IMG/VR virus record: IMGVR_UViG_3300045988_105524 | Source of the DNA: a virus | Direction: 5' to 3' (one strand) | Length of the DNA stretch: 64,000 nt | In this document: in pieces, positions 3,174-53,566 of the stretch | How positions within the stretch are numbered: position 1 is the first letter of the stretch | How the letters are laid out: each line of letters opens with the position of its first letter | Notes under the pieces: generated by a model | What the model was told of the DNA's origin: nothing | Database searches by the model: none | The model's input: only the letters and a program-made list of their open reading frames with translations | Program-made: the position numbers and the translations under genes

Positions 3174-3199
3174 TTCTTTTTATTTAGTTGTACTTCTTT
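3174..3199. repeat. A-repeat copy 5 (one mismatch)
   Basis: TTCTTTTTATTTAGTTGTACTTCTTT. Confidence 0.85.
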
Positions 3200-7093: not shown

Positions 7094-7732
7094 CTACCCT
7101 ACCAAATTACAATAGTATTTAACTTTTGCAAATACATCGCGGTGTTCGTATAAATCTACTGAGCATCGAACTCCTGGAAGAGCTCTACAACGAAAACTTA
7201 ACTTTTTATTTAAGTAGTCATACATAATACTATTCATATTTTCAGTGTCTTTAAATTCTATATAGTCTATGTTTGAACCTAAGTAGCGTATCTTGTAAAC
7301 CAAATCAGTAGGTACAGATACGCGGTCATACAGTTCGTATAAAGCACGCTCTCTTTTAATAAGCATTACATCTTCTTTAGTGATGAATCTTAAAAAATGA
7401 TTAGCTCGATTAAATAGCTTTCTACTACCTAAATCAGAATTAAACTGCTTAAGCAGATTACGTGTATGCTTGAGTCTAAACTCATACTGCGTCTTTTTAC
7501 CAATCTGTCTTGATACTACTCTTACTACATCATCAAAGCCGTATGCGTTTAAAAGACTTTCAAGCTGATACTTGATGTCTACGTCTTTATGATATACGAA
7601 CTTGTTTTCTTTTGCTTTAATCTCGTTCTCTAGTTCTTTTAGCTCATTCTGTAGTTGTTGCTGTCTCTCAATAAGCTCATAGATGTTATCATTATTCATA
7701 TTTATCACCTCTTTATGTAAATATTGTAACAT
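7094..7732 (-). CDS. hypothetical protein with N-terminal coiled coil (212 aa)
   Basis: ORF track; promoter and RBS upstream. Confidence 0.5.
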   Translation of the reverse strand: MLQYLHKEVINMNNDNIYELIERQQQLQNELKELENEIKAKENKFVYHKDVDIKYQLESLLNAYGFDDVVRVVSRQIGKKTQYEFRLKHTRNLLKQFNSDLGSRKLFNRANHFLRFITKEDVMLIKRERALYELYDRVSVPTDLVYKIRYLGSNIDYIEFKDTENMNSIMYDYLNKKLSFRCRALPGVRCSVDLYEHRDVFAKVKYYCNLVG

Positions 7733-7753
7733 AGCTTAAAGTAAATGTAAACA
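7723..7753 (-). promoter_or_regulatory. sigma70-like promoter TTTACA-N17-TACAAT
   Basis: Read on minus strand; preceded by hairpin+T-run terminator at ~7755..7790. Confidence 0.6.
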
Positions 7754-7774
7754 ACAAAAAGCAAGTCTCAGATT

Positions 7775-9754: not shown

Positions 9755-11800
9755 TTACTCAATATCAATTTCGTATTCATTTGCGTGCTCAGTGATATAA
9801 TCTTTTCTAACGCTTGAGTCATTACCCATAAATAACTCCATAAACATAGATGCAAGCTCTGCGTCTTCCATTGTATATCTTATCAATCTTTGTGAATCTT
9901 CATTTAAGAAAATAGCCATGTCTTTTGCTGAAACTTCACCAAGACCTTTATTACGCATTATCTTTTTAACTTCTTTTTCTTTTATTAATTTCTCTTTTTC
10001 TTCTTTATCAAATGCATATACTTTTGTACCGTCTTTATAGATTATTTCAAACAACGGCGTCTGTAATGCATACACGTGTCCTTCTTCTATAATTTCAGGC
10101 ATAAATGTGTAGAATAAAGTTAGTAAAAGTGAACGTATGTGCATCGCATCTTCGTCAGCATCTGTCGCGAAGATAATCTTATCAAACCTTAGCTTACTTA
10201 AATCACACTTTGTTGTTTTTGTATTTACACCAGTGCCTACTAGCTGAATAATATTTTTAATTAGTTGGCTACTCAACGCGTCAGACGCTTTTGCTTTATA
10301 CACAGACTTAATCTTACCTCTGATAGGCATAAGTGCTTGATATTCAGGGTTTCTTGCTTGCTTTAAACTTGACATTGCAGACAAACCTTCTGCAATATAC
10401 AATTCTCTTTTGCTTGAGTCTTTACTTCTACAGTCAACGTAATTTTCTATTCTATTGCGCATACCGTTAATATCAGACTTAAGCTTTTCTTTCGCTACTT
10501 TCTTGCTATCGGCAATTGATTTTCTAGCTTGCATCATTGTAACAGCTCTTGATGTAATCTTTTCTACGATAGAAGAATTTTCTTTTGTAGAAATAAATTT
10601 CATTAGCTCTGCTTTTACTGCGTCATAGATAGCGTTCTTTACTTCTTTACCTGCAAGCTCTTCTTTTGTCTGTCCAGAGAACAGAGGGTCTGGAATAAAT
10701 ACAGATAACTGTAGATTTAAACCTTCTCTATAATCTTCAGCATTGGGCTTATCTTTACCTTTAATCTCTGAGTTAAATGAATCTGCAAGAGCGTCTTCAA
10801 AAGCTTGTAAATGTACACCCTTGAGACGTGTTTTTATTGTATTTACGTATGTATCTACGTTACTCTCATCAGCATAGCAAAATGCAAGTTCTATATCAAC
10901 AGTACGAATTAAATCTTTGTGTTGAATAGCACCATCAGTCATTACTGCTACATTTTTCTCAAGATATTCATTTGAGGTAGTGAACTCTACAACATCTGCG
11001 CCTTCAGGTAGAGCGTCTCTTAAACCATTTTCAGAGTAATACTCGTACTCAGCATTATTCTTAAAATTATCAATTACTTTAATATGAGACTTAGGTAAAA
11101 GATAACTAACACCTTTAAGTCTATCATTTAAATCATCTACATCTACAGGATAAGGGCTTGAGAAAATATTATCATCAAGCTTAATTCTTATCTTAGTACC
11201 TGTAGGAAAATTAGTCTTATAGTACTCTGCTCTATCGTCTTTTCTTGATTTTAGAGTAGCTTTATTCTTTAAAGGCTTAAACTCATCTTCTTCATTAAAA
11301 TAACCTGGTACAAAATCTTTAAATGACATGTAGTAGATTTTATTGTTTCTATAAACTTCAATATCTACTCTTTCAGATAACGCACAAGCTGCGGATGCTC
11401 CTAAACCATTTTGAGATGTACTCTTACCACCAGATGAATTACTACCTAAATTCTCACCAGAACGAAGAGTTCCAAGAGTAATAATAAAACCATTTACTTC
11501 ATTTCCTAACGCGTCAGTAGCAGTGTCAATAGGTAAACCTCTACCGTTATCAAGCACTGTTACAAAACCATCATTATCGAATGTTACTTCAATTCTATCT
11601 GCAAAATTTCTTATGATTTCGCCAACGCTGTTATCAATAATTTCTCTGATTGACACTGTTTTCTGCAGAGAGTATGGATGCTCAGCATCGCCTGTTTCTC
11701 TACCAAATGTTAAGTTAATCTTTTTCTTAAGATGTTCTACATCTGTTAGAGACGTGATGTTTTCAGCAGAATAATGTTCAGTGACTTTCTTTCTTGCCAT
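9755..11800 (-). CDS. type II DNA topoisomerase, GyrB/ParE-like ATPase-Toprim subunit
   Basis: 681 aa; GHKL ATPase (..ILDNGRGLP..) and Toprim (..YIAEG.., ..IIFATDADEDAMHI..) motifs. Confidence 0.8.
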   Translation of the reverse strand: MARKKVTEHYSAENITSLTDVEHLKKKINLTFGRETGDAEHPYSLQKTVSIREIIDNSVGEIIRNFADRIEVTFDNDGFVTVLDNGRGLPIDTATDALGNEVNGFIITLGTLRSGENLGSNSSGGKSTSQNGLGASAACALSERVDIEVYRNNKIYYMSFKDFVPGYFNEEDEFKPLKNKATLKSRKDDRAEYYKTNFPTGTKIRIKLDDNIFSSPYPVDVDDLNDRLKGVSYLLPKSHIKVIDNFKNNAEYEYYSENGLRDALPEGADVVEFTTSNEYLEKNVAVMTDGAIQHKDLIRTVDIELAFCYADESNVDTYVNTIKTRLKGVHLQAFEDALADSFNSEIKGKDKPNAEDYREGLNLQLSVFIPDPLFSGQTKEELAGKEVKNAIYDAVKAELMKFISTKENSSIVEKITSRAVTMMQARKSIADSKKVAKEKLKSDINGMRNRIENYVDCRSKDSSKRELYIAEGLSAMSSLKQARNPEYQALMPIRGKIKSVYKAKASDALSSQLIKNIIQLVGTGVNTKTTKCDLSKLRFDKIIFATDADEDAMHIRSLLLTLFYTFMPEIIEEGHVYALQTPLFEIIYKDGTKVYAFDKEEKEKLIKEKEVKKIMRNKGLGEVSAKDMAIFLNEDSQRLIRYTMEDAELASMFMELFMGNDSSVRKDYITEHANEYEIDIE

Positions 11801-12945
11801 ATTTTATTTACAATCCTTTCGTTTATTAAATGTGATAGCTTGTTCTTAAAGCTATTGTTCTCTATTTCATCTTCCCATAATTCTATTAGAGTTATACCTA
11901 ATTCTTCTGCAGCTTTTTGTTTCTTCTTAAAATCAGCTGGAGTAGATTTAAGCGCACCTCCATAGAGTATCATTGGGAATTCACCTTCGACTTTGCTATG
12001 AGTAGCATTGCCTTGTACTTCAATACCTAATTGTATATCAGGCAATAGTATATCGATTTCTTGCTTATATTTTGTAACAGGCAGAATTTTTCTATTTGTT
12101 TCTACTGCTAGTTCAAAATTATCTATTATATAATTCAAGACTTTTTGCTCTAATCTTGACTTAGTTGTATTCTTAGCAAAATTAGAATAATCAACCCATT
12201 CAGGTAGATTTACTCCAAAATAATCTTTAAAATCTACTGCATTAGGTTTACGCTTTCTCTTATTCTCGAATTCACTAGCCCAATCATTGGCGTTTTTATA
12301 CTCATCTAATAATTTTAAATTTAAAGACGATTTATGTTGATATAATGTTTGACACACTCTATCGCAGAAATGCTTATTCTTAGGGATAGTGCCTTGCAAC
12401 TTTATTTCTTTACTGCAATATTTGCATTCTATTGTATGAAAATCAGTACAAACTTTCTGAGATGAAGAGGTAGGAGTAAATATATTCCCACAGTAAATAC
12501 ATTCTCTAGGTTTATACGTCATATTTTTACGTGTATGAGTATTTCTACAAGAAGAGGAACAGAACTTAGCATCTCCATAAGATTGAAAACGCTGTCCGCA
12601 TTCTATACAATAATGAATCTTTTTTGTTTTAGCGTGCTTATTCATAGCTCTTTGACACTGTTCAGAACAAAAATCACTTGTTTCTGAAGAGGTTTTGCGT
12701 ACTTTACAATTTAAGCAAAAATTATTCCAATTCTTTTCAGCGTTAAAACATTCTATACATAAATCTTGTTTTTCATAATTATAGCGTTTAAACTCTTTGT
12801 TACATCTACTACAGTTAAATACTTTTTCTTTAGTACTTAATTTACCTGCACAACTTCTTGAGCAAGTTTTACTTAAATATGAAGATAGTCCACGTTTTGC
12901 ATTAAACTCTTTATTACAAACTGGGCAGTTGCGTATTACTTCCAT
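11746..12945 (-). CDS. putative homing endonuclease: multi-Zn-ribbon N-terminus plus PD-(D/E)xK-like C-terminal domain
   Basis: Many CxxC pairs; C-terminal ..LPDIQLGIEVQG..; paralogs at 39161 and 54465. Confidence 0.45.
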   Translation of the reverse strand: MEVIRNCPVCNKEFNAKRGLSSYLSKTCSRSCAGKLSTKEKVFNCSRCNKEFKRYNYEKQDLCIECFNAEKNWNNFCLNCKVRKTSSETSDFCSEQCQRAMNKHAKTKKIHYCIECGQRFQSYGDAKFCSSSCRNTHTRKNMTYKPRECIYCGNIFTPTSSSQKVCTDFHTIECKYCSKEIKLQGTIPKNKHFCDRVCQTLYQHKSSLNLKLLDEYKNANDWASEFENKRKRKPNAVDFKDYFGVNLPEWVDYSNFAKNTTKSRLEQKVLNYIIDNFELAVETNRKILPVTKYKQEIDILLPDIQLGIEVQGNATHSKVEGEFPMILYGGALKSTPADFKKKQKAAEELGITLIELWEDEIENNSFKNKLSHLINERIVNKIWQERKSLNIILLKTSRL

Positions 12946-13011
12946 AGTCTCTCTTTTAATCTCTCTACGTTATTTCTAGCTTATGTATATAAACTATCAT
13001 TAAGAGCATAA

Positions 13012-13068
13012 AAAGCTCTCAGAAATGATTCTCGTACGTCTGAGATATATCTGAGAGCTATATTTTAC
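13012..13068. repeat. B-repeat copy
   Basis: AAAGCTCTCAGAAATGATTCTCGTACGTCTGAGATATATCTGAGAGCTAT. Confidence 0.8.
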
Positions 13069-13844
13069 TTAACGTTCAATTTAGCGTACAACTCTTCTTC
13101 AGTTATAATCTTTATGCCTAATTGCACTGCTTTCTTATACTTACTACTTGAGCTAGGTTCATTACAAACAAGAAAATCAGCTTTGTTTATAGCAACTTCT
13201 TCAGCATTATGCTCTTCTAAAAATTTAACTATATCTTTTCTTGCTTTGCTCATTTTGCCTGTTAGACAAACTTTTATACCTGCACTCTTTTTATTTAGTT
13301 GTACTTCTTTGACGTAGTTAAGCGCATCATCTAACTCAGAATAATCAAAGTTTAGTAGTGTATTAGAAATACCTGAACTGATACCAGGTATCTGAGAAAA
13401 ATCAAATCTTTCATCGATAGCTTTTCTAAAAGAAGAGTAGTTATTAAAATAATCAACTAGCTTTATCGCTGTTTGCTTAGAGATATTTTCTAAACCGCAA
13501 TTAGCAATTAATTTCCATAGCTCTATTTCTTTAGGGATGTTATTTAGAATCTTATCTACTGAAATATCAGAAAAACCGTCAAGCTGCAACCACTCTTCTC
13601 TATGAGCGTAGAGTTTAAAATAATCTGATAAGCAAGTTAACCAACCTAACTTAATCAACTTCTCAATAGTGGAGTTAGAGATGCCTTCAATATCAAGCGC
13701 TTGTTTACCTGCAAATCTTATTAGCTTATTCTTTATCTTAGCAGGACAGTGTTTATTTTCGCATACAAGCTGCTTTACTCCTGTTACGTCAATCTTTAAT
13801 TCAGAACCGCAGTCAGGGCATATTGTTGGAATTTCAATTCTCAT
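13065..13844 (-). CDS. ligA: NAD-dependent DNA ligase, C-terminal half (Zn-finger, HhH, BRCT)
   Basis: Starts with a Cys4 Zn-finger (ICPDCGSEL...CENKHC), HhH segment, C-terminal BRCT-like ..VCLTGKM..; own RBS GAGGTGA. Confidence 0.75.
   Translation of the reverse strand: MRIEIPTICPDCGSELKIDVTGVKQLVCENKHCPAKIKNKLIRFAGKQALDIEGISNSTIEKLIKLGWLTCLSDYFKLYAHREEWLQLDGFSDISVDKILNNIPKEIELWKLIANCGLENISKQTAIKLVDYFNNYSSFRKAIDERFDFSQIPGISSGISNTLLNFDYSELDDALNYVKEVQLNKKSAGIKVCLTGKMSKARKDIVKFLEEHNAEEVAINKADFLVCNEPSSSSKYKKAVQLGIKIITEEELYAKLNVK
13285..13310. repeat. A-repeat copy 6, inside the ligA C-half coding sequence
   Basis: Exact 26-nt match; encodes KEVQLNKKS in frame. Confidence 0.9.
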
Positions 13845-13853
13845 ATTATCACC

Positions 13854-14576
13854 TCAAATTTCTACAGAATTATCATAATATTTCCAATGCAAATTATTTG
13901 TTTTCTTACGCTTACCTGAACAGCATTCGCTTATTTTTGAATTGCGACTATTAGTTTCTTTTGAGGCTTGCGTTATAGAGTCGTATACTATTCCAGTCTC
14001 TACGCATACAACTTTACGCCGTTTTTTGGCGGCTGCAGCTTCAATTCTTTTTTTATGGATAATCTTCATTTCTTCTGGGTGTTCTTTTTGCCATTTTAAG
14101 CAGTCTTTAACTTTTTCTCTCGACCATTCTATATCATTTTTCATTTTAATCACCATAGCTTTGTTAGCATTCGGAGAAATGATTTTTATTCCACATATTC
14201 GTTTATTATACTCAGGTTTTAGACTCCTGATATAATTTTCTTCTATATTTTTAGCTTCGCTAATAGTACAAGTAGCTCTAGATAATTCTGTATGCGTAAA
14301 ACACCCGTTTCCATATTTCTCAATGTCTTGATTAAACTCTTTATTAAACTTATACCCCTTGCCATTTCCCCATCTAGCTTTAATAGATTTTTGTGTTGTA
14401 GCTCCAACATATCGTTTATTGTTTACTGTGCAAGTGTGCATATAAAATATAACATTATATTTATTAGTGTCTTCATCAGATTTTAATATAGGTTTTTCAT
14501 TGTGCATGTCCTTTAAATGCCGATTTAACGAAGAGCGACAAGAAAAACACTTATTGCATATTAAACATCTTTCCAT
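13854..14576 (-). CDS. GIY-YIG homing endonuclease inserted within the DNA ligase gene
   Basis: N-terminal C2H2-like finger, ..YVGATTQ..R..GNG.. GIY-YIG-like core, basic C-terminus; ATG overlaps the ligase N-half stop (TAATG). Confidence 0.6.
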   Translation of the reverse strand: MERCLICNKCFSCRSSLNRHLKDMHNEKPILKSDEDTNKYNVIFYMHTCTVNNKRYVGATTQKSIKARWGNGKGYKFNKEFNQDIEKYGNGCFTHTELSRATCTISEAKNIEENYIRSLKPEYNKRICGIKIISPNANKAMVIKMKNDIEWSREKVKDCLKWQKEHPEEMKIIHKKRIEAAAAKKRRKVVCVETGIVYDSITQASKETNSRNSKISECCSGKRKKTNNLHWKYYDNSVEI

Positions 14577-15607
14577 TAGTTATTCCTTTCTGCTTTTACT
14601 ACTTGCGGTATTATACAATTTGATTTTCTTATCCAAATCTTTTGCCCAACGTACGGTTCGCCAAGAATTTTTTCTACTATATCAAGATTATGCATACTAG
14701 CTCTCTGAACATTTGTACCATCAATAACAACAGGCTTAAACTTCGCTACAGGAGTAAGATTACCTGTCTTACCTTGTGTCCATATAATGTCTAGCAACTC
14801 TGTTTCATATAGCTCATCATAAAATTTAAAAGCTAAAGCAGCGTTAGGACTATGCTCTGTTTTACCTAAGCTTTCATATTCTTCTATATTGTTAATCTTG
14901 TAAACTAGACCGTCAATAGGTAAATCAACACATTGTTCTCTTAGTGCCTCTGTATCAAAATCAAATCTATAAGGCACTACTTCAAAATCTCTACCTAAAT
15001 CATAAAGCTTTTCTGATAGTAGAGAATAAGACTTATCTGAAGAGATTAAATCAAAAGCAATAAATGATAAATTTCTCTGCTCTGCAACTTTAAGTCTCAT
15101 ACTACCCGCAGCATAATTTCTTACATTGGAAGAACCTACGTAATCAGAATATTTACAGATAACTTCACCTTCGACTGTAATATCATAAGGTAGAGACTTA
15201 GGAATATTGTCAATCATCATAGCGTTATGCGTAACATCTTCACCTATTCTGCCATTTCCTCTAGTCTCTGCTCTGAATAGCTTACCATTTTTATAAGTTA
15301 ATCTACAAGTTAAACCATCAAGCTTAGCCATAGCGATAATATCTTTATTCTTAAAAAATTTCTTTACTTCTTCAATATCTTTTGTTTTATTTAAAGATAG
15401 CATAGGAGTAGAATGCTCTACTTTATTCAATGTATTAGAGTGAATATTCTGAGTAGGAGAATCTTTATCAGGAGTATGCGTCTTTTCATATTCTACTACT
15501 TGAAAATATAAATCATCCCATTCTTTATCTGAAAGTGCAGGTGCTCCAGAATCATATAACTCTGTGTGCTTATTTAATTCTTTTATTGCTTCTTTATAAT
15601 TGAACAT
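14576..15607 (-). CDS. ligA: NAD-dependent DNA ligase, N-terminal half (Ia, adenylation KxDG, OB fold)
   Basis: ..AMAKLDGLT.. KxDG motif, ..ALAFKF.. motif V, complete OB-fold-like C-terminus; ends exactly at the OB/Zn boundary. Confidence 0.8.
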   Translation of the reverse strand: MFNYKEAIKELNKHTELYDSGAPALSDKEWDDLYFQVVEYEKTHTPDKDSPTQNIHSNTLNKVEHSTPMLSLNKTKDIEEVKKFFKNKDIIAMAKLDGLTCRLTYKNGKLFRAETRGNGRIGEDVTHNAMMIDNIPKSLPYDITVEGEVICKYSDYVGSSNVRNYAAGSMRLKVAEQRNLSFIAFDLISSDKSYSLLSEKLYDLGRDFEVVPYRFDFDTEALREQCVDLPIDGLVYKINNIEEYESLGKTEHSPNAALAFKFYDELYETELLDIIWTQGKTGNLTPVAKFKPVVIDGTNVQRASMHNLDIVEKILGEPYVGQKIWIRKSNCIIPQVVKAERNN

Positions 15608-15618
15608 ACTATACCTCT

Positions 15619-16188
15619 TTACAAATATCTCTGAGTATTACTTACGTAAACAAAACAACCTGTTAACGGTTTACAATTTGTCAATAGCTTAACGCATTTA
15701 AAATACTTTCGTACGTGCTCTATCTCTTCTTTAGGAATGTAAAGTAATGCGTCATTAAAATCTTTTGATAAGCATTCATACTGATGATTTCTCTGTTCTC
15801 TGTTTGCGTAGCAATTCCAACCTAAAGATAAAATAGCCACAGCGAGTGAATCTTTATCAACATTTACTGAATTTACACCATAATGTGCTTGTTGATAAGA
15901 GGTGAATTTTACAAACAAATCTTGCATATAACGACTTGAATCATTAATTGCATTATACTCAATGTCAAATTTATTAAATAGATTACCTTGAACTGAACAA
16001 GCAGTGCCGATGTTAGTAACGCTTTTAATGTCATTCTTCAAACAAAAGTCTATGACAAATTCATAATTACATAGACCTTCAAGAAGATTAAGATAACAAT
16101 ATTCAAGCTGAGTAAAGTAATCTTCATCGAATTTATCTTCAACAGCGCGTAAATTATTTAAGTTTTCGTGTAGTATATTTTCTAACAT
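15619..16188 (-). CDS. hypothetical protein (189 aa)
   Basis: ORF track; AAGGAG RBS and consensus promoter upstream. Confidence 0.5.
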   Translation of the reverse strand: MLENILHENLNNLRAVEDKFDEDYFTQLEYCYLNLLEGLCNYEFVIDFCLKNDIKSVTNIGTACSVQGNLFNKFDIEYNAINDSSRYMQDLFVKFTSYQQAHYGVNSVNVDKDSLAVAILSLGWNCYANREQRNHQYECLSKDFNDALLYIPKEEIEHVRKYFKCVKLLTNCKPLTGCFVYVSNTQRYL

Positions 16189-16212
16189 ATCAAATCTCCT
16201 TATAATAGAGAT

Positions 16213-16243
16213 ATTTTAACACATCATACAAAATATGTAAACA
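16213..16243 (-). promoter_or_regulatory. sigma70-like promoter TTTACA-N17-TAAAAT
   Basis: Minus-strand read; follows the T9 run that ends the ncRNA. Confidence 0.55.
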
Positions 16244-16261
16244 TAAAAAAAAATGCTACAC

Positions 16262-16518
16262 ATGAGATGGCCAGTCTCACCGTAACATTCCTTTGTTTCT
16301 AGCATTCCGCCGAACAGGTTAATTTATCTTGTTTCCCTAACGCCTAGGTACTGCTTTGCTTTTGATAGAGGAGGGAGTCGAACCCTCAAGTGGTAATTTT
16401 GCAACCGTACGGCTTGCGGGCCGTACACCTTTTCTCTCCGCAATGGCAAGCTCCATCTACTTGCAAAGTTTACTTGAGAGTCTCACTCAAGAACGTGGCG
16501 GGCACTGTACCGCGTGTA
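16262..16518 (-). ncRNA. structured ~255-nt ncRNA with tRNA-like T-arm (GAGGG-TTCGACT-CCCTC); candidate Y-RNA-like / tRNA-like RNA
   Basis: Non-coding, GC-enriched; perfect 7-bp hairpin GTACGGC/GCCGTAC; T-arm consensus; own TTTACA-N17-TATAAT promoter; ends in hairpin + T9. Confidence 0.55.
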
Positions 16519-16523
16519 ATTGT

Positions 16524-16554
16524 ATTATATCAAAAGACTCATAATTTGTAAACA
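16524..16554 (-). promoter_or_regulatory. sigma70-like promoter TTTACA-N17-TATAAT driving the ncRNA
   Basis: Perfect -35/-10 with 17-nt spacer on minus strand. Confidence 0.65.
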
Positions 16555-16565
16555 CTTTTTATAAA

Positions 16566-22020: not shown

Positions 22021-22140
22021 AGCCAGATTTAACTTCTGACTGCTGTTTTTATCATAGGTGATAGTTTATATTAAATTAGCATAAAAGTTTACGAGAGACG
22101 ATTCTGGAGTTTCTGAGATATATCTGAGAGCTATATTTCG
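22021..22140. repeat. composite C+B intergenic repeat (inverted orientation relative to 32281..32395)
   Basis: Reverse complement of GATAAAAACAGCAGTCAGAAGTTAAATCT (C) and of the B consensus. Confidence 0.8.
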
Positions 22141-22925: not shown

Positions 22926-22953
22926 AACGTAAACCTCTCTTTCGATATTTTCT

Positions 22954-22984
22954 ATTATATCAAAAGATATTTAGTATGTAAACA
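22954..22984 (-). promoter_or_regulatory. sigma70-like promoter TTTACA-N17-TATAAT
   Basis: Perfect consensus on minus strand, directly after hairpin+T10 terminator (22985..23012). Confidence 0.65.
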
Positions 22985-23012
22985 AAAAAAAAATACAGCT
23001 TAATGCTGTATT

Positions 23013-27808: not shown

Positions 27809-27891
27809 AATAATTTCCTCTCTTTATATATTTATTATAACAAATATATAAAGAGATGTAAACAAAAAAAAAATGTACCTCGTGCGGTACA

Positions 27892-32068: not shown

Positions 32069-32094
32069 TCTCTTTTTATTTAGTTGTACTTCTT
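32069..32094. repeat. A-repeat copy 7 (about 45 nt upstream of the recombinase start)
   Basis: Exact match. Confidence 0.9.
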
Positions 32095-53263: not shown

Positions 53264-53290
53264 ATATTATATTAAAATGTATATAAAAAT

Positions 53291-53315
53291 GTCTCAGAAG
53301 TTAAATCAGAATCTC
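53291..53315. repeat. C-repeat fragment (CTCAGAAGTTAAATCAGAATCTC)
   Basis: Matches core of C-repeat. Confidence 0.5.
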
Positions 53316-53566
53316 TGAAGAGCATTCAAGAGATAAAATTCTTCAAAATCAGTTAGAGACATATTATACTTGCCATCTGACATACAGATATATTCAACAT
53401 TGATTGAAGCATTAAGCTCAGGAAAAGTAAGATTAGTGTAAACTCTCTTAAAACGTCCTGACATATACTTAAATCTACCTAAGCCGTCACGTTCTATTTC
53501 TACAATAGCTCTATGACTGACGTTAGAATCAAGATATTCTGTTATCTGTTTTACTTCTACTAACAT
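53306..53566 (-). CDS. hypothetical protein (86 aa)
   Basis: ORF track. Confidence 0.4.
   Translation of the reverse strand: MLVEVKQITEYLDSNVSHRAIVEIERDGLGRFKYMSGRFKRVYTNLTFPELNASINVEYICMSDGKYNMSLTDFEEFYLLNALQRF

Follow-up and report, generated by a model that had tools for sequence, protein, structure and literature searches.

The NAD-dependent DNA ligase (LigA) of the IMG/VR virus record IMGVR_UViG_3300045988_105524, a stretch of 64,000 nucleotides (nt) hereafter called the window, is encoded by two separate genes that flank a gene for a GIY-YIG homing endonuclease (HEG). On the minus strand, positions 13065..15607 comprise three closely packed open reading frames (ORFs), in the order LigN (the N-terminal ligase subunit), HEG, and LigC (the C-terminal ligase subunit). 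This split had been proposed in an earlier note on the same DNA and is borne out by the ORFs, the domains, and the profile matches. Comparison with related loci suggests that the two-gene LigA probably arose when a mobile unit carrying the HEG homed from a distant donor, turning a contiguous gene of the type found on contig L004 into a two-piece one. Two-piece ligases, as in phage T5, and endonuclease-split phage genes are already known. What is new here is LigA as the host gene with the HEG in place, the presence of both HEG-plus and HEG-minus alleles, a measurable co-conversion tract, and a cassette that includes a replacement exon tail.

Organization of the ligase locus

LigN (15607..14576, minus strand) encodes 343 residues comprising a putative domain Ia, an adenylation domain (K95-L-D-G98), and an OB fold; on the minus strand it ends in ...KSNCIIPQVVKAERNN, with the stop codon after N343. 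The HEG (14576..13854, minus strand), a 723-nt ORF of 240 residues, starts at an ATG that overlaps the LigN stop in the sequence TAATG. LigC (13844..13065, minus strand; 259 residues) comprises a Cys4 zinc finger (C9, C12, C28, and C33), a HhH region, and a BRCT domain. Its Shine-Dalgarno (SD) sequence GAGGTGA (13849..13855, minus strand) overlaps the HEG stop and is followed by four bases (TAAT) and the LigC ATG. The three ORFs were found exactly at the coordinates given in the earlier note, and both the TAATG overlap and the ribosome-binding site and ATG that it assigned to LigC are present. The HEG is read in a different frame from both ligase halves, and only 9 nt of the insert lie outside its ORF. 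The locus does not encode LigA as a single polypeptide, given the LigN stop, the out-of-frame HEG ORF, and the new ATG of LigC.

The break had been placed at the boundary between the OB fold and the zinc finger. This holds for the proteins, as LigN ends about five residues past its I332-I333 strand and LigC starts eight residues ahead of its first zinc ligand, but not for the insertion point in the DNA, which is located about 11 codons upstream, in the last OB strand. In our model, LigN, HEG, and LigC would be co-transcribed and each translated from its own start, the HEG start being coupled to the LigN stop through TAATG and LigC using its own GAGGTGA. By analogy with T5 LigA/LigB, LigN and LigC would then form a working ligase through non-covalent association.

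Completeness of the two ligase halves

LigN matches the Pfam families DNA_ligase_aden (PF01653, E = 3e-35) and DNA_ligase_OB (PF03120, E = 3e-19), with a sub-threshold match to Nlig-Ia (E = 0.006; 17.7 vs 27 bits). LigC matches BRCT (E = 3e-9), with a sub-threshold match to the C4 zinc-finger domain (E = 3.5e-4). On the 656-position PHROG profile of full-length NAD ligases, LigN corresponds to positions 8-381 and LigC to positions 389-654. The half-specific PHROG families phrog_3359 (N half, E = 6e-59) and phrog_3498 (C half, E = 3e-34) match as well.

In the alignment of LigN with Escherichia coli LigA (PDB code 2OWO), K95, D97, and G98 fall on K115, D117, and G118, R116 on R136, D232 on D285, K237 on K290, and K261 on K314, and the I332-I333 strand is aligned with V383-I384. 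The catalytic residues of the adenylation domain are invariant in an alignment of 10 sequences. The putative domain Ia, which in LigA is the part that contacts the NMN moiety of NAD+, aligns with 2OWO from residue 15 on; among Y22, H23, D32, Y35, and D36 of E. coli LigA, residues with a role in this domain, the equivalents of Y22, D32, and D36 are kept, H23 is replaced by D, and Y35 by W. In LigC, the zinc ligands C9 and C12 align with C408 and C411, C28 and C33 complete the four cysteines (C426 and C432 in 2OWO), and the HhH region aligns with 2OWO residues 433-586. The domain order of OB, Cys4 zinc finger, HhH, and BRCT is present across the two halves.

The halves sum to 602 residues (343 + 259), compared with 600 for the contiguous relative P0001, and the alignment runs end to end with nothing missing; the earlier description of both halves as seemingly intact stands. 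Relative to the split strain variant L016, which, like L017, has ligase halves 96-98% identical to those of the window, the dN/dS values are 0.065 for LigN, 0.148 for HEG, and 0.165 for LigC; relative to the contiguous L004, they are 0.087 for LigN and 0.079 for LigC. These values indicate that LigN, HEG, and LigC are all under purifying selection. An interrupted gene of an essential type could be one that the HEG has inactivated and that is now decaying, the phage using the host LigA instead. This is hardly credible in view of the absence of frameshifts and internal stops in either half, the retention of all catalytic residues and zinc ligands, the dN/dS of 0.07-0.17 between two split strains, and the identical arrangement on contigs from several samples. 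The retained catalytic residues and the purifying selection support the view, already put forward in the earlier note, that this is probably a functional two-piece LigA rather than a pseudogene.

The GIY-YIG endonuclease

As a single sequence, the HEG matches the Pfam GIY-YIG family below threshold (19.4 vs 22.6 bits). The profile of a 22-member HEG family, however, matches the catalytic domain of I-TevI (PDB code 1MK0) over its whole length (E = 1.5e-8, residues 5-93), and Y45, Y56, G58, R68, E112, and N124 are invariant across the 22 homologs. The protein comprises an N-terminal C2H2 zinc finger, the GIY-YIG core, and a C-terminal DNA-binding region resembling NUMOD and I-HmuI. It shares with I-TevI and the Seg endonucleases of T4 the core Tyr, Tyr, Arg, Glu, and Asn residues, a modular organization with a C-terminal DNA-binding region, and the co-conversion of flanking markers. 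It differs from I-TevI in not being intron-encoded, in its N-terminal C2H2 zinc finger, and in its predicted target, which is located in the ligase OB domain. The zinc finger (residues 2-25; window 14501-14573) is of the classical type and gives weak matches to eukaryotic zinc-finger proteins; Pfam zf-C2H2 is also recorded in the HEG homologs P0130 and P0132. Such an N-terminal domain is unusual among GIY-YIG homing endonucleases.

The dN/dS of the HEG relative to its relatives is 0.15-0.18, and the gene therefore appears to be maintained rather than decaying; the protein is probably a nuclease that is still active. Its predicted target in the ligase OB domain is approximately AAYATGATTATTCCNCAG, and on the L004-type allele the candidate cleavage target lies around AACATGATTATTCCGCAG. 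The HEG is thus a candidate site-specific nuclease with a deducible approximate target.

In four relatives, the GIY-YIG HEG between LigN and LigC (L024:3926-4600, L060:7078-7755, L042:7123-7800, and L027:3854-4610) contains 5-6 in-frame stops, all of them TAG and several at positions where homologs have Gln, and the flanking ligase halves are free of in-frame stops. As the stops are exclusively TAG and several coincide with Gln positions, we set aside the interpretation of these HEGs as decayed pseudogenes. TAG-to-Gln recoding is more likely than decay; suppression would then be required for the HEG only and not for the ligase.

Probable homing into a contiguous ligase gene

The best database match to LigN is P0001 (83% identity), the contiguous ligase encoded by L004, which has no HEG and shares the window's gene order of ligase followed by topoisomerase II. 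L005 carries the same HEG (85% identical) at the same place, next to a LigN that is only 55% identical to that of the window over the first 270 residues. HEGs of the window type (80% identical) are also present in L014 and L022/L037, next to a LigN that shares only about 50% identity with that of the window.

The window LigN is a mosaic of the L004 and L005 alleles. Its first 270 residues are 87% identical to L004 and 55% to L005, whereas its last 73 residues are 66% identical to L004 and 86% to L005; the first ~45 residues of LigC follow the L005-like pattern of the LigN end. Outside the flanks, 374 informative nucleotide sites favour L004 and 139 favour L005, compared with 24 and 79, respectively, within the flanks (Fisher p = 5e-21). 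The left tract, at the 3' end of LigN (14577..14767, minus strand), spans about 190 nt, with the best breakpoint between 14769 and 14765; in 60-nt windows it shows 77-92% nucleotide identity to L005 vs 55-70% to L004. The right tract, at the 5' end of LigC (13690..13844, minus strand), is L005-like over about 155 nt, with the best breakpoint between 13695 and 13688. Co-converted flanks around a HEG are the classical mark of homing via double-strand-break repair (PMC2988022), and the pattern indicates that the flanks of the window HEG are a co-conversion tract of this kind.

Two pairs of HEG-plus and HEG-minus alleles at a fixed site are available: the window vs L004, and L037 vs L077. We infer that conversion proceeded from the contiguous to the split state. 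Double-strand-break repair from a donor with an otherwise distant ligase would have placed the HEG in the ligase gene of the window. On the two sides of the HEG, this repair would have overwritten about 190 nt (upstream) and 155 nt (downstream) and brought in the junction made up of stop, SD, and ATG, which would have changed a contiguous L004-type gene into a two-piece gene.

A further arrangement is observed in L005, where the HEG (L005:2785-4293) runs in frame into LigC (KYYDD-MRIEIP) as a single ORF of 502 residues; the 24 nt that hold the stop and the ribosome-binding site in the window are absent. This is based on a single contig with about 3x coverage, and the product would be either a fusion protein or a LigC initiated internally.

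Insertion point and duplicated OB strand

The LigN tail recurs at each locus 3' of the conserved HEG C-terminus (HWKYY), where a second copy is read in a different frame. This copy is intact and followed by a stop in L019 (MIIPQITRAEK) and in L022/L037 (MIIPQIAKAEKR), and it is degenerate in L014 and in the window (ATGATAATTCTGTAG...). What is left of the recipient's own LigN tail in the window is a stretch of 23 nt (13854..13876, minus strand; ATGATAATTCTGTAGAAATTTGA), derived from M-I-I-P-Q..., which matches the L004 target ATGATTATTCCGCAG at 12/15 nt, as counted by eye. Read out of frame, this stretch encodes the end of the HEG, including its stop, and contributes to the ribosome-binding site of LigC.

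The comparison of the HEG-less L077 with the HEG-plus L037, whose flanks are 84-89% identical, delimits the inserted block in L037: it consists of a new tail (CIIPQVIKAERNN, then a stop) and the HEG, placed between AAT and ATG of N-M-I-I-P-Q. The native tail of L077 is kept after the HEG in L037 (33/36 nt). The sequence N-C-I-I-P (AAT TGT) is found in 7/7 loci with a window-type HEG, whereas HEG-less loci mostly exhibit N-M-I-I-P (AAT ATG); this altered N-C target in the carriers would fit protection from their own nuclease.

These comparisons indicate that the HEG moves as a unit with a preceding stop codon and a replacement for the LigN tail, and that this unit enters the last OB strand between the codons for N and M. 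In the window, the unit lodged in N-M-I-I-P-Q would have provided C-I-I-P-Q-V-V-K-A-E-R-N-N as its replacement strand. V383 and I384 of E. coli LigA, with which the duplicated strand is aligned, presumably matter for activity; if so, only insertions that carry a replacement strand would leave a working LigN. The idea of a split gene made by a HEG is therefore upheld as far as a free-standing HEG at the junction is concerned, but the simple cut at the linker that it implied is not, since a replacement strand is carried along.

The window junction GGTGATAATATG resembles the L077 junction TAAGGTGATTTTATG, and the LigC SD region resembles the junction of stop, SD, and ATG, AAGTAAGGTGATTTTATG, of the HEG-less split allele L077. 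This suggests that the junction is older than the HEG in the donor lineage and was brought into the window lineage with the flanks. The split in the window was probably imported by homing and not made de novo here, because the HEG travels with a replacement OB strand and a stop, within junction signals that look older than the insertion.

The same likeness also fits the alternative order of events, in which the ligase gene of this lineage had been split, like those of T5 and of many gut and rumen phages, before the HEG entered its junction, and the contiguous L004 was derived by re-fusion through recombination with a contiguous allele. A break at this residue is widespread and accompanied by unrelated cargo, the layout of stop, SD, and ATG of the window is present in L077 without a HEG, L037 compared with L077 represents a HEG entering an already split gene, and nearly all of the best 120 LigN matches are proteins consisting of the N half only. 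We nevertheless consider this order unlikely. The recombinant tract is contiguous with the HEG and as L005-like as the HEG itself, as predicted for homing into the window lineage, and the L004 linker (HHAGAPTDEE) is of normal length, with no visible fusion scar.

Some observations weigh against homing into a contiguous gene as the origin of the split. The sole close HEG-less relative available, L004, is one Logan contig of 9.8 kb, and the direction of conversion is deduced by parsimony only: L004 either represents the contiguous form from which the split arose or goes back to a split form that was re-fused. The likeness of the junction to those of HEG-less split alleles means that the HEG may be a passenger in an older split and not its cause. 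In addition, the GIY-YIG, zinc-finger, and Ia Pfam matches of the window proteins are each below the curated thresholds, and their membership is derived from family profiles and residue alignment. Binding of LigN to LigC, nick sealing by the pair, and cleavage of the L004-type site by the HEG are predictions.

Absence of an intron or intein

HEGs are often located in introns or inteins. Metagenomes have yielded a ligase gene that is fractured and contains a split intein (PMC2677866). A HEG inside a group I intron, an intein, or a split intein would allow the ligase to be rejoined at the RNA or protein level. For the window, we regard this as practically untenable. A permissive Rfam scan of 12800..15900, covering both junctions, returned no family better than E = 1 and only two chance matches, in agreement with the earlier note, which had seen no intron-like structure. 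The junction RNAs fold no better than shuffled sequences, with no structure that would sequester a ribosome-binding site or resemble an intron at either junction. A group I intron carrying the HEG is ruled out by these results and by the mere 9 nt outside the HEG ORF. An intein or split intein is ruled out by the out-of-frame HEG, by the summed length of the halves (602 vs 600 residues), which leaves no room for a Hint domain, and by the absence of a Hint match in the Pfam search of the window ligase and HEG proteins. In relatives, moreover, unrelated genes lie between the halves, or the halves are kilobases apart.

The fractured genes described by Dassa et al. 2009 (PMC2677866), which combine split inteins with a free-standing HEG, resemble the window locus in the order of N part, HEG, and C part in phage DNA-metabolism genes, with one ligase example. 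In contrast to these, the window locus has no intein halves, for which the lengths and the alignment leave no room.

Split ligases in related phages and known precedents

Two-piece LigA proteins were known before, as T5 ligA/ligB, as PHROG families specific for each half, and as the two-chain NAD ligase of PDB entries 9HU3/9I5I, so that the arrangement itself is confirmed here but the novelty that the earlier note had attached to it is not. The annotation of T5-like phages has long included ligA and ligB with their break at this residue (PMC3632103). The residue at which the window ligase is broken is also the break point in T5 ligA/ligB, in Vibrio phage Thalassa, which has three ORFs between the ligase halves, in Klebsiella phage Kpn02, and in the two chains of 9HU3/9I5I. 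The literature search for a published HEG-split LigA yielded only T5 ligA/ligB annotations and general papers on genes in pieces, and the search on PDB code 9HU3 yielded no paper.

In T5 and other Demerecviridae, LigA (323 residues) and LigB (259 residues) show the same break, and each half has the same domain content as in the window. LigN ends a few residues past the (I/V)IP strand in both cases, and the LigB start of the T5 type, M-K-I-E-I-P-T-x-C-P-x-C-G, is closely matched by that of the window LigC, M-R-I-E-I-P-T-I-C-P-D-C-G. While the break point and the LigC start are strikingly alike, the identity to the window proteins is only about 27-30%, and the nearest relatives of the window ligase are not Demerecviridae, the closest being contiguous. 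The T5 genes are separated by a 199-nt spacer annotated with promoters and without a HEG, whereas the gap in the window is filled by an intact HEG.

Among 80 IMG/VR relatives with 46-52% identity, 62 ligases are contiguous, 17 (17/79 assessable) are split at this boundary, and one lies on a truncated contig. In some split relatives, the halves are separated by GIY-YIG HEGs that are 38-80% identical to that of the window. The junction insert is an HNH_3/NUMOD4 endonuclease in L011 and, on the 324-kb contig L008 (6111-6891), a toxin-antitoxin-like pair of a Polbeta-nucleotidyltransferase and a HEPN protein, which is likewise found in L009, L010, and L028-L030. Other split relatives exhibit unknown ORFs or spacers of 290-446 nt, and in L087 the halves are simply adjacent. 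In the large contigs L014, L019, L020, L023, and L077, LigC is more than 4 kb away or out of view, with both halves kept kilobases apart in L020 and L023, and this distance in several contigs implies that the two-gene state is long-lived.

The large distances could also mean that the halves do not assemble, LigN alone being a minimal adenylation-OB ligase and LigC an independent DNA-binding and BRCT scaffold. No LigC is found within 4-6 kb of LigN in L014, L019, L022/L037, and L077, and the relative P0024 has no BRCT domain. We consider such independence very unlikely: nick binding by E. coli LigA requires the zinc finger-HhH module, purifying selection acts on LigC, which adjoins LigN in most split loci, and 9HU3 contains both chains in one entry. 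In 9HU3/9I5I, chain A has 339 residues and chain B, named 'DNA ligase subunit B' and starting with MKIQIPTHCP, has 248. This entry and the purifying selection on both halves provide an indirect basis for a two-chain complex.

The mechanism proposed for the window corresponds to that of genes in pieces created by free-standing HEGs, and the comparison with split phage topoisomerase and polymerase genes made in the earlier note is appropriate. Known cases are mobE in nrdA of Aeromonas phage Aeh1, mobA in the T4 topoisomerase gene, and seg43(25) in gene 43 (PMC2988022; Friedrich et al. 2007, PMC1851037). In these as in the window, an essential gene of DNA metabolism is interrupted by a free-standing endonuclease gene and yields two separately translated polypeptides, and related phages carry the uninterrupted gene. 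The pieces of nrdA and gene 43 were shown to stay active; for the window ligase, activity is predicted. For the window, by comparison, the sequence data reveal HEG-plus and HEG-minus alleles, a co-conversion tract, and a duplicated exon tail.

Possibly, although this is a tentative view, the GIY-YIG element is a portable gene-splitting module that carries its own last OB strand and stop and drags along the downstream junction of SD and ATG by co-conversion. If so, one homing event could make any contiguous phage LigA a functional two-subunit enzyme. Repeated invasion, decay, and loss would then explain the break point shared by T5-like phages, by the 100-500-kb phages of gut, rumen, and oral samples, and by 9HU3, and the same cycles would explain why the site serves as a landing pad for HNH endonucleases and for the Polbeta-nucleotidyltransferase/HEPN pair. 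In a more ambitious but plausible reading, such cassettes may be the general cause of the recurrent LigA break point, T5 included.

The loci can be arranged in a before-and-after series, from contiguous to invaded genes, to the HEG fused to LigC, to short-spacer loci, and to T5-like ligA/ligB, which illustrates a way for a selfish endonuclease to divide an essential enzyme into subunits without destroying it. This offers a possible origin for the two-subunit ligase of T5, which is otherwise unexplained. The linker between the OB fold and the zinc finger appears to tolerate separation and would represent a permissive split site in LigA, which could be useful for split-ligase reporters and domain swaps.

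Putative transcription signals and repeats

A candidate sigma-70-like promoter matching the consensus (16213..16241, minus strand; TTTACA, 17 nt, TAAAAT, with TG) precedes a 189-residue ORF located ahead of LigN. No comparable promoter match was found between LigN, HEG, and LigC in the consensus scan. An intrinsic-terminator-like hairpin (13008..13059, minus strand) starts 6 nt past the LigC stop and consists of a 10-bp stem, AGCUCUCAGA/UCUGAGAGCU, followed by UUUUUAU (dG -21.7 kcal/mol, z = -3.45). The simplest model would be one transcript comprising the 189-residue ORF, LigN, HEG, and LigC.

Both kinds of signal have counterparts among the repeats of the window. Families D1/D2, with 11 copies (7712-7762, 16202-16252, 22952-22992, 27823-27873, and seven others), show a T-run, TTTACA, 17 nt, and TATAAT on the minus strand and look like strong sigma-70-type promoters with an upstream T-rich element. 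Family D4, a 59-nt hairpin with a U-tract (AGCTCTCAGA...TCTGAGAGCT), is present at gene ends (841-899, 1360-1418, 1809-1867, 13008-13066, 22081-22139, and 53283-53341) and looks like a shared terminator module; D5 and D7 are related to it.

The 25-nt motif AAGAAGTACAACTAAATAAAAAGAG (family D6) is present as an exact copy in LigC (13285..13309, minus strand), where it encodes KEVQLNKKS in the linker between HhH and BRCT; the orthologous site of L004 has 4 mismatches. The earlier note had reported a sixth copy of a 27-nt repeat inside the C half: the copy is indeed in LigC and is the sixth of seven in window order, but the exact core measures 25 nt. The other copies, also on the minus strand, are located at 756-780, 919-943, 1461-1485, 1878-1902, 3174-3198, and 32070-32094. 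Of the seven window copies, 6/7 are exact and most are intergenic, three preceding a terminator-like hairpin by 20-70 nt and two immediately preceding start codons. L004 has two copies, both exact and intergenic. The motif contains TAAATA and is possibly a promoter-like element.

The non-coding region 16189-16565 has a GC content of 0.38, compared with about 0.31, and shows two promoter-like sites and a GC-rich hairpin (16407-16426), with no Rfam match. It may encode a small RNA.

Phage context and neighbouring genes

The exact window proteins are found on a 191.7-kb contig and on several others from human samples, one of which is labelled human oral metagenome. Megablast comparison of the region with 50,697 phage records returned no match, and the GenBank phage collections contained no near match. 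Between 40084 and 54474, the window carries 26-27 tRNA genes in three minus-strand clusters, none of them with a stop-codon anticodon; this number of tRNA genes points to a large, uncultivated phage.

The topoisomerase II large subunit of the window (9755-11800, 681 residues) has no PT-HINT match. In the strain variants, the same subunit is more than 826 residues long (L016:4994-6940 and L017:3374-5320) and exhibits a Hint/intein match (PT-HINT).

Between LigC and the topoisomerase II large subunit, whose start it overlaps by 55 nt, lies an ORF of 399 residues (11746-12945, minus strand). L004 has two unrelated small ORFs at this position, and comparison of the 399-residue ORF with these replaced ORFs and with the L056 insert revealed no relationship. 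The ORF is rich in CxxC zinc-ribbon repeats and matches PHROG HNH/homing-endonuclease families, and it likely represents a second mobile endonuclease.

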